Assembly (NCBI GenBank): GCA_964016885.1
Contig: OZ024741.1
Span: 33,790,001-33,854,000 of the forward strand
Source of the DNA: Eledone cirrhosa
Taxonomy: Eukaryota
DNA length: 64,000 nucleotides
Direction: 5' to 3'
The position numbers and the translations under genes were made by a program. This document shows, piece after piece, positions 1,569 through 58,674 of this stretch (position 1 is its first letter; each line of letters starts with the position of its first letter). Under the pieces are notes generated by a model. The model was not told where the DNA came from and searched no databases. It saw only the letters and a program-made list of their open reading frames with translations.

Positions 1569-1639
1569 TATTTTATCTGATGAAAACACAAATGTTATTG
1601 CATGATGATATTTGTTTTTGAAATGCGCATAATAAAATA
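1569..1639 (+). ncRNA. Type I hammerhead ribozyme
   Basis: Stem I tattttat/ataaaata; CTGATGA 1577-1583; long stem II; GAAA 1620-1623; palindromic stem III tgcgca; cleavage after UA. Confidence 0.85.
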
Positions 1640-2655
1640 CTTGGAACTCTTTTAACCATCTTTTGATCTTATATATTATGTATACTCCAGTCCTACAAAC
1701 TGTAGAGTGCTTCTTATCCGATATCTGCATTGCTTTATTGTACTACAATAAAACTCACCTCCTACATATATATATATATATATATATATATATATATATA
1801 TATATATATATATATTCGTAGAATAATGAGAAGAACTCAATGCAAGAAAGCTGTTAAAGCAGCAAAGTGCCGCCAATGACAGCGTTGGGTAAAATGTACC
1901 TCGAAGGACATTATGACTCGTACTCCAACTCGATCTTCGAGAAGACTTAGTATATATATAAACATATATATATATATATGTATGTATATGTATATATGTG
2001 TATATATATATATGTGTATATATATATATATATGTATGTATATGTATATATATATATATGTGTATATATATATATATATATATATATATATATATATATA
2101 TATATATATATATATATATATATATATATATATATATATATATATATATACACACAGAGAGAAAGAGAGAGAGAGAGATAGGGAGAGGTGTAAAATCCCA
2201 ACCACAGTGCCAAGCGGTTTCGGCTTGTGTGTCAAGCAAGCCTTATCATGTATCGAGTACTCACAGGATATTAGTGGTATATGATATATAAAATTAAATA
2301 GCTATGCTTTAACAACACAATACTGTATTCTTAATCGTACAACACATGATGTAAACTATATGTAGACATATGAATAGGTAAATAAATTTAGTTTTCAGCT
2401 CTGGATTAAAATTCAAGTTAATGAGAAAAGCTTGTGGTGAGAAGAAACCAGGCAAACAATTGACATTTATACACTTGTTAGAGTATTTGCAGCCCTGCTG
2501 TACATATGATATATATATTCCTTCAATAAGGTGTATATGGTGTCTTTGAAATACTATGGATGACTGTTTCACGTGCTAAATATAGAATGTAATATAAACG
2601 CTCTTATATATATATATGTATGTGTATGTATATATTTATGTTTGTATATATATAG

Positions 2656-2790
2656 TGAAGGCGTGTGGCTGAGTGGTTTGATAATTGGATTAGCAATCAT
2701 GAGTTTGTGAGTTCGATTCCCGGACCGGGTGATGCGTTATGTCCTTGAGCAAGACACTTTATTTCACGTTGCTCCTTCTACCTGGAGTTG
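2656..2790 (+). mobile_element. tRNA-derived SINE 5' fragment
   Basis: A box tggctgagtgg, B box gttcgattcc, followed by ccttgagcaagacactttatttcacgttgctcc shared with other copies in the window. Confidence 0.7.
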
Positions 2791-2939
2791 CAACTGATAG
2801 ATAGTATTAGCAATTTGAAAAACCAACGGAAACATTGCTTCCTCGGTTCGATCGACTGTCGATGTATATATATATATATATATATATATATATATATGCA
2901 TACATATATATATACAAAGAAAGAGTCTAAAGTTTGTGT

Positions 2940-3192
2940 TCAGCCCAGAAGCTCATCGGGCCAGTGTTTATCCCAGTTTCCGTGGTGGTAAGCGACTGAC
3001 AGTACAATACTTCCCTCTGGACAGGACGCCAGTCCATCGCAGGGTTCAACCCTCAGATATTGATGCTGGTGCTCAGTTGAGTATACTGGAGCAACGTAGG
3101 ATGAGGTGTTTTGCCCAAGAACACAACAGTCCAGAAATCGAACCCACAGCGTTCGAAAGTCCAACGCCCTTACCACTAGGCCACGTGCCTCC
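2940..3192 (-). mobile_element. tRNA-derived SINE
   Basis: Reverse strand shows a tRNA-like head and the central gcgatggactggcgtcctgtccag block; homologous to 5480-5745 and 18860-19120. Confidence 0.75.
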
Positions 3193-54468: not shown

Positions 54469-54506
54469 TATATATATATATATATATATATATATATATA
54501 TATATA

Positions 54507-56410
54507 AACAAAGTATCATGAAAGTTGAAGCACCACAAAGATCAATTACAAAAAAGATAGTTGGCATGACAGGCCTTGACTATTGGGGTCGATTAGAAAA
54601 GCTCAAACTTTATTCTCTTTAACGTCACCGTGAGCGCTACATTATCTGTATGATGTGGAAAATATTCCATCAGCTTAGCCCAAATGATGTTGGCATCACC
54701 TTTAGTGTACACCCAAGGCTTGGGCCCCGTGCTATCCGCCCACGACAAAAATCCCACTCGTATCACATAACAACAATACGGCACAATTATTTCACCTCAA
54801 TTGGCCCTGCACTCTTTAACATTACACCAAAACACATCAAAGCAGAGACAGACCCCATCAAGTTCAAGAAGTCTTTGGATAAATTCCTTCAAGAAATCCC
54901 AGATAAACCTCCTACACCCAGATATGCCTCAGTAAACAATAACTCTCTGCTCGAGTGGGCCATTGTGCCCAAACACTGATTTATGTGTTTTGGTGTAATG
55001 TTAAAGAGTGCAGGGCCAATTGAGGTGAAATAATTGTGCCGTATTGTTGTTATGTGATGCGAGTGGGATTTTTGTCGTGGGCGGATAGCACGGGGCCTAA
55101 GCCTTGGGTGTACACTAAAGGTGATGCCAACATCATTTGGGCTAAGCTGATGGAATATTTTCCACATCATACAGATAATGTAGCGCTCACGGCGACGTTG
55201 AAGAGAATAGAGGTTGAGCTTTTCTAATCGACTCCAATAGTCAAGGCCTGTCATGCCAACTATCTTTTTTGTAATTGACCTTTGTAGTGCTTCAACTTTC
55301 ATGATACTTTGTTTCGTGTGGGATTACCACAGTGGACAACAGTATTCAAGGTGGGGTCAGGCAAAAGTGGAGAAGAGAAGGACAACAGTGTGGATATCTC
55401 TCGACTGGAAAGTTCTGAGAATCCAGGAACACATTCTGCGGGCCATATCAACTTTGCTGTTTATATGAGTGGCCCAGCTTATATTGTTGTCCACAATTAC
55501 TCCCAGGTCTCTGATGTTATTGGAAGCCACTAGAGTTTCACCCGAAGGAAGAGAGTATGGTAGTTTCAGGGCATCCTTTTTTCCAAAGTGGATTAGTTCA
55601 AATTTATCCTCATTCAACAGCATATTATTCATCTCTGCCCATTGGATAACAGCCAGTAGGTCTGACTGAAGGCAAGTCAGGCCACCCACCTCATTGATGA
55701 CCCTTTGGAGCTTGGAATGATCTGCGAAGATTCTGATGTTACTGTGTTTGATGATGTCAGTAATGTCATTAATGTAGATGATGAAAAGAAATGGGCCCAA
55801 CACAATGTCTTGTGCAGGGCTTGATTTTACTCCTTCGACTACAACATACTGGGTTCTGCCTGTCAGGAAACATTTGATCCACTGTAGTAATCTTCCAGAG
55901 ACACCAACATTGGATAGTTTTTTCAGTAGAATCTTATGATCAACCCTGTCGAAGGCCTTGCTGAAATCAAGGTAGATGACATCAGTGTTGGAGCCCTCTC
56001 CCAAGGCTCTCAAAACATCGTCAAAGTGATGCAGGAGCAGCGTTAGGCAGTCCCTTCCATTACGGAACCCATGTTGGTTGGAGTTCAGCAGGCCATTGCT
56101 TTCAAGAAAGTGGGTTATTCGTGATCTCACCACCCTCTCAAATACCTTGATAATATGAGAGGTGAGTGAAATCGGACGGTAGTTCACTGCACGGGACTTA
56201 TTTCTCTTTTTGAAGACTGGGACAACGGACTGGGACAGAAAGTTTTCAGGAATATAGCCAGTGTCCAGTGAGTTCCTCCACAGATTAGCAAGAGGAGTTG
56301 CCAGTTGGTGTCAACACACCTTCAGGACACAAGCAGGGAACCTGTCGGGGCCTACTGCTGAATTGTGTTTAATTTCGTTTATTGCCGCTAAAACAGAATG
56401 TATGAGCAAG
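54507..56410 (-). mobile_element. CR1-clade LINE RT (minus strand 54980-56410) with inverted 3' segment (plus strand 54507-54979)
   Basis: NYRPISLTSHIIKVFE, QHGFRNGR, YLDFSKAFDRVDH, IFADHSKL, YWSRLEKLNLYSLQRRRER, FKKSLDKFL..IPD. Confidence 0.9.
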
Positions 56411-58268
56411 ATGTGGTTACCTGACCTATCTAGCCTCATAATGTGACAACCCATACAAGGAGTAGAAACAATGATATCATTAGAGAGGTATGTCATAGTA
56501 TATGTCTGGAGAATTTTGCAAAACCTGGCACCAAATATGACCAAATAATCTTCTACAACGACAAATGACAAATGACAAATGAAAAGGAAATTGTATACAA
56601 ACCCTCCACTGAATACTAGTTGCTCATAAAATGGAATGAATCTTCATCAGGTTTGACAATGAGTGTTCCAGTTGTTTGATCAATGGAACAGCCGGCTTAT
56701 GAAATTATTATGTAAGTAGCTGAGTATTCCTCAGACACGTGTACTCTTAATTCTCAAGGAAATTCAGCACGACACAGAATGTGACATGGCCGACCTTTTG
56801 AATTACAGTTGCAGTCCATCTGCTAGGCTTCCAAGCAGTTTCTGTCTACCCAGTTCCACTCATAAGACATGGCTATGGAAAATGACACTTGACCAAGGTG
56901 CCATGCAGTGGGATTTAACCTTGGCCCTAACGACTATGAAGTGAATTTCTTAACCATTCTCACATTCCAAATCAGAGATCAAAATCTCTTTAACACACTA
57001 AAAGTTGACATATACTTTGAAATTCTTCTAGATTTACTTGCTGTAGATGGCTATGTAGAATTCTAAGCTGAAAACAATGTTTCTTTGATAAAGTTGATTT
57101 AAAAATTTAAAACTGAGTCCAATCTTTGGAAAATTCTAATAGAAATCAGAAAATCAGAACTTTAAGAAATAAAGAAATAGAAGTAGGATAATTCATATGA
57201 AAAGAATTTATATAATAAGGAGTTGATAGACCCAGCATATTTAGCAATGCCAGTACTGGTTGTATCTCAGCGTACTCAATAGGCAATGTAAGATACATTC
57301 CCAGAGTATACACATAGTTATTCGCTTCAATACAACACACGTAAGACGCGTGCCTATAATAGTTCCCGGACTCGAGTTTCTGCCGCACTAATGCAGCATT
57401 AAGGTGTATTGCACATCCGTCTGCATATTTATGCAACAATGCACAATCGGCTTATGCGGCTTCATCAGCGGTTATCGCCTAATCAATAACCAATCGATCG
57501 ACAGAATCCAAACCGCAGCCCATGCCGGTCATGACATATATATATATATAAATATATAAATATATATATACATATACATATATATAATGTGGTTAGGAAG
57601 GGCATCCAACCGTAGAAAACCTGCCAGATAGTCCTATATGAGCGAGACACGGTCACTCGACCAATCTTACCTCAAATGGGACAATTCCCGTCTAACCCAT
57701 GCTAGCACGGAAGATAGATGTTAAACGATGATATTGATGATGATGATGATATACATATAAATATATATATATATGAGTCCTGGGTTCAATCAGAGGTAAC
57801 CACAATAAGTAAGGTACTCAATACATTAGTAGAGTGTATACAACAACATTTAATATAGGAATGGCTTCTACAGGAATAGAACTGTTTCATTTGAAGGAAA
57901 TCATCAGGAAAAGTTCATAGGTTGACCAAGATACTCTCATAGAATGACCAAATGAGGTTTATTTTTCAACATAATCCCTGGAAAGAAACAGTACAGTTAT
58001 TAATAAGAATAGTTGATATTAATGCATGTAAGATTTCACAGCTCTAGCATCACTCCTTCACAATCAGCCTATGAACTTTTCATCCTACACTCATATATAT
58101 ATATATATATATATATATATATACATTTAGGTTTGTTGGTTCACTACTGGATAGAACTGGTCATTCCGTATAGTCAACCTTGATGTAATATTAGGGAGAG
58201 CATTTGACGTAATGCAACTCACCCGTCTTTGTTTGTGTTCTTGTTGGTAGTGCAAGTACAGAGTTAAT

Positions 58269-58674
58269 TATTATAAAATAACAGGAGTCTGGACTGGTGT
58301 AATTCCTTAAAGGTTTATTATACTATGAACATTTCAATGACCGGGTTCAGTATGAATCCGGTGACATCATCAGGTATTCCGAAATTTAACAAAGGAATAT
58401 AATAGACACAATCCAAGGGGCTGAAAAGCAGAGAGATACGCAAGACGAGAAGGCGGCCAAAAAATTAGCAGTTGCCACTTAAAGGCGGCCACCTGGATTG
58501 GCAACTGCTAATTTTTTGGCCGCCTTCTCATCTTGGGCATCTCTCTGCTTTTCAGCTCCTTGGATTGTGTCTATTATATTCCTTTGTTAAATTTCGGAAT
58601 ACCTGATGATGATGTCACCAGATTCATACTGAACCCAGAATTACACCAGTCCAGCCTCCTGTTATTTTATAATT
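58269..58674. repeat. ~400-bp fold-back palindrome with an HHR in the left arm
   Basis: Arms 58269-58477 and 58499-58674 are reverse complements; the right arm lacks the segment equivalent to about 58296-58341. Confidence 0.9.
58320..58377 (-). ncRNA. Type I hammerhead ribozyme
   Basis: Minus strand atac-CTGATGA-tgtcaccggattcatactgaacccggtcatt-GAAA-tgttca-TA-gtat, followed by AATAAA. Confidence 0.75.

Follow-up and report, generated by a model that had tools for sequence, protein, structure and literature searches.

A 64,000-nt stretch of the Eledone cirrhosa genome (assembly GCA_964016885.1, contig OZ024741.1, positions 33,790,001 to 33,854,000 of the forward strand; hereafter, the window) carries numerous hammerhead ribozyme motifs, most of which appear to lie in Penelope-like element (PLE) ends. 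A type I hammerhead descriptor (CUGANGA, stem II, GAAA, helix III, UH, and helix I, with one mismatch permitted in helices I and II) identified 12 sites. Eleven of them had been listed in a preliminary description made from the sequence alone; all 11 coordinates were confirmed, each coinciding with the outer helix I end or lying no more than 2 nt from it, and the complete cores with stems reported there (CUGANGA, stem II, GAAA, helix III, and NUH) were present at all 11 sites. The type I core (CUGANGA, GAA, A15.1-U16.1, NUH) was shared by these sites and the twelfth, and the degenerate copies mentioned in the same description were also seen, as partial or decayed hammerheads belonging to these or to related families. 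Two pairs, 30464/30580 and 50375/54217, form the arms of inverted repeats, so the 11 motifs correspond to nine insertions, which represent nine high-copy families, designated here by the window position of their motif. A stricter first scan, which required a paired stem II base, picked up just two window sites.

Such matches might be chance hairpins in AT-rich, repeat-rich DNA. CUGANGA by itself was found at the chance level in the window (30 seen against 26-27 expected), Rfam finds nothing, and about one chance hit of the descriptor is expected per 400 kb. Since CUGANGA alone is not enriched, the signal lies in the joint structure. Dinucleotide shuffling gave a mean of 0.127 hits (300 shuffles in 500-nt blocks) or 0.137 hits (300 shuffles of the whole window), with a maximum of 2 in 600, so that the excess over shuffled sequence which the preliminary description had proposed as a check is observed (12 sites against a mean of 0.13). 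The descriptor thresholds were fixed after the sites had been seen, and the fair test is thus unseen DNA with the descriptor unchanged. In a blind sample of 400 kb (40 blocks of 10 kb at round coordinates, small scaffolds lying outside the sample), 45 hits were obtained, compared with 0-3 per shuffle (30 shuffles). In addition, each of the nine families searched genome-wide has dozens to thousands of similar copies. These controls refute an origin by chance, which we regard as practically negligible.

The genome-wide search covered eight families of the preliminary description and the 57907 family, to which the twelfth motif belongs. It returned 1,412-2,935 first-look candidates for eight families and 67 for the 1569 family, figures that are not copy numbers; only 40 candidates were scored per family. 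The motifs and their families, ladders of 5' truncation, inverted partners, and (TA)n junctions were observed, as were links to PLE reverse transcriptase (RT)/GIY-YIG coding sequence for eight of the nine window families (six Hydra-clade, one Neptune-like, and one Nematis-like), in agreement with the initial view that these are the type I hammerheads of PLEs. With the exception of the 58320 family, all nine show (the 27260 family indirectly) the layout of endonuclease-bearing (EN+) PLEs, that is, one open reading frame (ORF) carrying RT and GIY-YIG domains upstream of a terminal repeat, and the partial tandem and inverted terminal repeats and 5' truncation of this group were also found. We estimate, with a probability of about 0.82, that the motifs are hammerheads in PLE terminal repeats, present here as 5'-truncated relics at TA microsatellites, and that the full-length elements likely cut multimeric RNA. 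The features concerned are listed in Table 1.

Table 1. Hammerhead-bearing insertions and related features. Positions are those of the window unless a locus fetched from elsewhere in the genome (L number) is given. UTR: untranslated region.
Feature	Position	Strand	Details
5'-truncated Hydra-clade PLE	226-1815	+	GIY-YIG-type endonuclease end (to 588), T/C-rich 3' UTR, terminal repeat, (TA)n
Type I hammerhead (1569 family)	1569-1639	+	stem II long, helix III a palindrome (UGCGCA), cleavage predicted after 1631 (AUA)
5'-truncated Hydra-clade PLE 3' end ("orphan" 4988)	4619-5093	+
Hammerhead (4988 family)	4988-5069	+	12-bp helix I, stem II base A.G, 3-nt loop on helix III, cleavage predicted after 5057 (GUA)
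5'-truncated Hydra-clade PLE 3' end ("orphan" 26991)	26658-27092	+
Hammerhead (26991 family)	26991-27046	+	stem II closed by G-C, helix III a palindrome (UAUAUA), cleavage predicted after 27041
Short PLE end (27260 family)	27154-27338	+	inverted partial copy 27154-27256, then direct copy with hammerhead 27260-27309
Inverted-pair insertion, Hydra PLE terminal repeat	30332-30718		hammerheads 30464-30549(-) and 30580-30669(+)
5'-truncated Neptune-like PLE	36240-38369	-	RT 3' half and endonuclease 36998-38077, hammerhead 36429-36467, inverted tail 38236-38369
Short Hydra PLE 3' end ("orphan" 46185)	46151-46277	+	hammerhead 46185-46245
Inverted-pair insertion, Nematis-like PLE	50151-54495		hammerheads 50375-50419(-) and 54217-54261(+)
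Twelfth motif, 57907 family	57796-57911	-	hammerhead 57865-57911, 8-nt loop III
Inverted-pair insertion, 58320 family	58106-58676		hammerhead 58320-58377(-), degenerate mirror copy 58476-58676
Degenerate or partial hammerhead copies	9931-10051(+), 14307-14371(-), 26335-26508(+), 30732-30928, near 24923(-), near 7644(-), 58476-58676(+)
310-bp tandem repeat (five loci, none in window)	L145:1893-3147, L426:1-1282, L414:8584-9601, L175:2289-3179, L039:2387-3219

Coding links were counted with 1.5 kb of flank on the best copies, and matches to residues 13-58 of the 52-588 frame, which correspond to an unrelated repeat (88-225), were excluded. The 1569 family has its own endonuclease upstream on the same strand in 13/30 best copies, the window copy included. 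The sites at 4988, 26991, and 46185 had been regarded as orphans lacking nearby coding sequence and possibly representing non-autonomous families. However, a Hydra-type endonuclease is located upstream, on the strand of the motif, in 12/30 copies of the 4988 family (at 1.2-1.5 kb) and in 8/30 copies of the 26991 family, and, although the 46185 family reaches its own endonuclease in 1/30 copies, this copy (L271) is a whole element with inverted repeat, RT, endonuclease, 1.2-kb UTR, and hammerhead. The three sites are thus 5'-truncated ends of autonomous Hydra elements, and the orphan inference fails. The 27260 family was tied to a Hydra endonuclease via its 3' UTR (loci L326 and L342); with the UTR of its longest copy, Hydra coding sequence was found upstream on the same strand at 7/30 loci, and coding sequence together with the hammerhead at 2/30. 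For the 30580 family, a Hydra RT lies directly downstream of the repeat, with a shared junction, in two of 30 copies (L272 and L273).

The Hydra-clade motifs were those defined in section 11 of PMC8557442 and were checked by script, giving a motif-based clade call. The RT 5' part was recovered for the 4988, 46185, and 30580 families, and not for the 1569, 26991, and 27260 families. RWK and DKT (a changed DKG) were found at L289 (4988 family), L271 (46185 family), and L272 (30580 family, with RWR instead of RWK). The CxCx5C linker was detected by pattern at L289 and by eye at L033, and is decayed at L271 and L272; the further traits of the clade (no CCHH motif, and CxxC plus CxH near the C-terminus) were also present, the terminal motifs being read by eye. 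A search for relatives returned 2553.

The Hydra clade, a member with a hammerhead in Octopus bimaculoides, and unpaired U.U and C.A stem II bases have already been published (PMC8557442). The elements described here share with these PLEs (Craig et al. 2021, PMC8557442) RWK, DKT, CxCx5C, and a GIY-YIG-type endonuclease at the C-terminus, together with (TA)n insertion, a hammerhead near the 3' end, and inverted partner copies. The 4988-family RT and the protein of Hydra-1_Obim (O. bimaculoides) agree motif by motif when compared by eye (PMC8557442 supplement), whereas the hammerhead sequence listed for Hydra-1_Obim is unlike every window family. This likeness of the RT and the load of microsatellites are in line with an octopus-like cephalopod as the likely host. 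Compared with the published elements, the window differs by at least six families, 3' UTRs of 1-1.5 kb that are rich in microsatellites, and stem II regions of up to 61 nt. The same source lists U.U at the stem II base for Hydra elements of H. magnipapillata and C.A for a Chara element.

In the 36429 family, the endonuclease is upstream on the same strand in 11/25 best copies, and L270 has a repeat-ORF-repeat arrangement. The 50375/54217 hammerhead comes after a GIY-YIG ORF in the window (50622-51140 on the minus strand, mirrored at 53610-54413), and L426 is a near whole element of this family. A linker of the form Cx2-5CxxC, as in clades Neptune and Nematis, precedes the GIY-YIG domain at L270 and L426, and KGLKF and DKG were also found at L270. 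The split between the two clades is motif-based, and L270 is tentatively taken as Neptune-like and L426 as Nematis-like. Nested between the arms of the Nematis-like pair is a Hydra RT-endonuclease fragment (52029-53611, minus strand) that is 72% identical to the 26991-family endonuclease. Separately, a decayed long Neptune-like RT-endonuclease ORF was seen at 27550-29850(+), with no recognisable hammerhead downstream.

Copies of the 1569, 4988, 26991, and 36429 families form nested 5' truncations with a common 3' end. In the nine families searched, (TA)5 or longer was found near the 3' end of 227/265 copies, compared with 296/1080 background windows (27%), and 81/265 copies have an inverted partner upstream. 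These observations are consistent with a cycle in which multimeric RNA of a full-length element would likely be cut by hammerhead dimers or with the help of the element's protein, the endonuclease would nick AT-rich DNA, as published work on other PLEs suggests (PMC11167929), and reverse transcription would start close to the terminal repeat's 3' end and in most cases stop early. Initiation at two nearby internal sites (PMC11167929) could account for an optional tail. With an early stop and a hammerhead located 60-250 nt from the 3' end, the hammerhead would be the part most often copied. In solitary and inverted copies, such as those in the window, two hammerheads of one strand would not be available for pairing in cis, and these copies are probably mostly inert; from the dimer and protein-dependence results obtained elsewhere, we expect that full-length transcripts in tandem would be cleaved, with little cleavage from such copies.

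A very abundant short repeat was also noted at 88-225(-), with 19 BLAST hits in 400 kb, usually as an inverted pair at (TA)n. It has a GAAA hairpin with no CUGANGA upstream and a short 3' motif in common with the 27260 and 57907 families, and is perhaps a PLE end without a canonical hammerhead.

Solitary motifs could also be independent non-autonomous families, either retrozymes or similar to short interspersed nuclear elements. Most copies of the 46185, 27260, 30580, 58320, and 57907 families measure just 80-400 nt and many begin near one point, RT and endonuclease are both missing from the 58320 family, and the genome contains a tandem family with a 310-bp unit. However, this explanation is refuted for 4988, 26991, and 46185 by their autonomous parents, and no window family occurs in tandem arrays: no head-to-tail hammerhead repeats of 150-450 bp were found for the window motifs, and the fetched loci held three isolated same-family, same-strand pairs less than 1.2 kb apart (L071, L309, and L251). 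We therefore consider it improbable for the window as a whole. The minisatellites at 8252-9310, 32631-35014, and 44747-45280 (periods of 48, 79, and 201 nt) gave no hit with the hammerhead descriptor. The claim that the window motifs come from several unrelated families holds in that there are many families, but a single clade accounts for six of them, and RT alignment between the 4988 and 46185 families shows 49-79% identity by piece. A non-autonomous family is likely present, the 58320 family, which is not one of the three sites singled out earlier; for retrozymes, a tandem family resembling them exists, but outside the window.

The 58320 unit consists of a terminal repeat and a body of approximately 1.8 kb, with hammerheads 2.1-2.2 kb apart, and the body starts at an identical repeat junction at six distinct loci. 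The body had no tblastn match to the PLE queries, its longest ORF (176 aa) had weak Atlas matches only (0.78), and nothing was found in an Rfam E-value scan of the unit. Hydra sequences near L414, L416, and L417 were rejected as parts of this unit, since microsatellites or further insertions lie in between. Some 58320 copies also have Hydra RTs or an N-terminal PLE ORF next to them, which were rejected as partners since they belong to other insertions. The 58320 family is thus quite likely a non-autonomous PLE of about 2.1 kb, which would likely be moved by proteins of autonomous PLEs. It is similar to PLEs mentioned for Chlamys as putatively non-autonomous, and its unit is longer than the retrozymes of 51-972 bp described in bioRxiv 10.64898/2026.07.22.740005.

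Two further observations concern this family. A branch-point-like CTAAT followed by a pyrimidine tract and a CAG that ends 47 nt upstream of the 58320 hammerhead core was seen at 58421-58460(-), possibly an intron 3' end within the terminal repeat, as in Penelope of Drosophila virilis. The body also contains a duplicated GC-rich segment of about 280-340 nt (L415:3479-4076) without an Rfam match. Of the hammerhead families of the window, the 57907 family gave the most BLAST hits (16) in the 400-kb blind sample, and about 480 nt walked upstream at 30 loci and 24 longer stretches revealed no coding sequence.

The 310-bp repeat is arranged head to tail with 97-100% identity, and each unit carries a type I hammerhead with a palindromic helix III (CGCG). 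Its arrays end at unit position 180-182 (three loci) or 208-213 (two loci) and are followed by (TA)n, two array ends about 30 bp apart that resemble the tail signature of PLEs. It is likely a non-LTR (long terminal repeat) retrozyme, and fits the description of these elements as non-coding, with type I hammerheads, and as proposed users of PLE proteins (PMC7229834; bioRxiv 10.64898/2026.07.22.740005). Retrozymes have been argued to derive from PLEs in the latter preprint, whose species summary, in the part available, includes no mollusc.

Concerning the anatomy of the ribozymes, the predicted cut sites are AUA, GUA, CUA, or CUU, and helix I is open, with 4-12 bp, while stem II has 3-15 bp. Stem III had been described as short and often palindromic: a true palindrome was found at 5/11 sites (four families), but not at the other six. 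At 10/11 sites the helix III loop is 0-2 nt, too short for closure within one molecule, which fits the dimer model of PMC4209133; monomer closure is possible only at 4988 (3-nt loop) and 57907 (8-nt loop). The 30464/30580 hammerheads have a branched stem II region of 61 nt and a palindromic helix III (CAAUUG), and the 46185 hammerhead has C.A at the stem II base, a loop III of 1 nt, and one mismatch in helix I. Such a mismatch, also present once in the 30464 copy, is absent from the majority of either family. The stem II base is G-C at 3/11 sites, A-U at one, and unpaired (A.G, U.U, C.A, or C.U) at seven, the unpaired state being a family property (A.G in 27/27 members of the 4988 cluster and U.U in 48/48 of the 58320 cluster).

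Subfamilies were compared using sequences gathered by similarity and not by structure. Those of the 26991 family differ by one compensatory stem II pair (C-G versus U-A) and one G-U/G-C change, and 95.8% of cells are paired in this family compared with 11-50% in slid controls. Double changes that keep pairs were also seen by eye, in a comparison of majority sequences, affecting helix I in the 57907 family and stem II in the 30580 family.

PLE terminal repeats with hammerheads have been described before, as have inverted pairs and the wide occurrence of solitary copies (PMC4209133). The motifs of the window share with these minimal hammerheads (Cervera and de la Pena 2014, PMC4209133) the type I topology, a short or palindromic helix III, a long helix II, and an occurrence mostly as solitary copies from truncated PLEs or as inverted pairs 100-700 bp apart; the 50375/54217 family also shares an extra nucleotide before G10.1-C11.1. 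This pair is highly conserved according to the same source, whereas it was found here at 3/11 sites.

Several results weigh against the assignment of the motifs to cleaving PLE hammerheads. The stem II base lacks a Watson-Crick pair (G10.1-C11.1) at 7/11 sites. Isolated folds are weak (z-scores of -2.2 to +0.3), several minimum-energy structures differ from the hammerhead, and single-strand folding did not discriminate. The formal covariation count for the 26991 family gave one pair altered on both sides, a value equalled by 452/500 shuffles. Rfam at the gathering score returned no match in the window, and thus none of the 12 motifs, and in E-value mode no hammerhead model was among the 150 listed of 301 weak matches, which were mostly microsatellites against microRNA models. 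As for the coding links, a direct one was seen in 0/30 copies of the 27260 family, whose UTR bridge holds at 67-86% identity, and that of the 30580 family amounts to 2/30 copies plus L266. Finally, the hammerhead of an anole PLE cut only with the protein, and insertion in vitro did not require it (PMC11167929), and eight of nine Xenopus retrozyme dimers failed to cleave (bioRxiv 10.64898/2026.07.22.740005). Minimal PLE hammerheads are reported to cleave weakly as dimers (PMC4209133).

Alternatively, the motifs in PLE terminal repeats might act mainly as a structure for RT initiation, promoter activity, or the binding of protein, with self-cleavage being slow or irrelevant to transposition. Besides the insertion of the anole element without its hammerhead, the absence of RNA-seq reads ending at its cut site (PMC11167929) and the spread of Naiads without canonical hammerheads (PMC8557442) are in line with this idea. 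Every copy examined here also spans the cut site, so that their templates were either uncut or re-ligated. However, the complete catalytic core and NUH are retained over 22 multi-member clusters with differing stems, and only N7 and H17 vary freely, as selection for catalysis predicts. A mainly structural role appears unlikely, although it is the more serious of the competing explanations, and we favour cleaving hammerheads in PLE ends.

Within the blind sample, at least one hit was present in 22/40 blocks: the 27 blocks on the four largest contigs contained 38 hits and the 13 on other contigs contained seven. Extrapolation by stratified bootstrap, minus the chance rate, yields about 290,000 motifs (95% range 180,000-420,000) for the 3.0-Gb genome. 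As the probability of at least 12 motifs per 64 kb is 0.25 on large contigs, the window is typical and not a hotspot. PLE coding sequence makes up 4.3% of the sample and occurs in 13/40 blocks. The fetched DNA, which totals 2.03 Mb and in which the queried families are overrepresented, gave 450 distinct hits in 54 clusters, 22 of them with at least two members, which bears out the suggestion of a diverse population of hammerhead elements in this genome. Since inverted partners and decayed copies account for many of the motifs, the numbers of insertions and of active ribozymes would be lower than the motif count.

Published counts are 126,247 in axolotl (PMC7229834), about 9,000 in Xenopus tropicalis and about 4,000 in coelacanth with a stricter descriptor (PMC4209133), and 235 Rfam hits in giant squid (PMC6962438). 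The descriptor used here is looser than the published ones, and the comparison of about 290,000 with the axolotl figure is not like for like; with this difference in descriptors, the estimate suggests a load exceeding the published counts that we found. Expansions of Penelope in cephalopods have been noted, with ribozymes not mentioned in the part of PMC8967140 available. For an octopus, our literature search found neither a genome-wide hammerhead count nor a retrozyme; what it returned was Craig et al. and the squid value given above. Systems of this kind are known; the scale, the likely non-autonomous 2.1-kb family, and the retrozyme-like repeat may be new. We propose tentatively, with somewhat less than even confidence, that this is the largest hammerhead load yet (about one per 10 kb, about 300,000 in total, more than 20 families, dominated by the Hydra clade), and that PLE machinery also spreads two kinds of parasite, one a non-coding element of 2.1 kb and the other a young retrozyme of 310 bp. 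The study of PLE hammerhead variants by Lunse et al. in 2017 may already include such variants or high counts.

Should a density of about 100 motifs per Mb apply to the whole genome, hammerhead sequences would be present in many introns and read-through transcripts of the host, and annotation based on Rfam misses such motifs (0/12 here). The young Hydra families (97-99% identical, with near-whole ORFs), the stem II base variants, and the PLE-tailed retrozyme offer material that would allow testing of the role of PLE hammerheads and of whether PLE proteins move animal retrozymes.

Other retroelements were also observed in the window. At 40777-43933, a fragment of a non-LTR element with a GDGKRPDG motif forms a large inverted duplication (identity about 83%); this motif presumably indicates a restriction-like endonuclease clade such as CRE. 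RT fragments of the long interspersed nuclear element type were found at 12769-14288(-) and 54889-56310(-), both matching Pfam RVT_1, and at 61669-62043(+).

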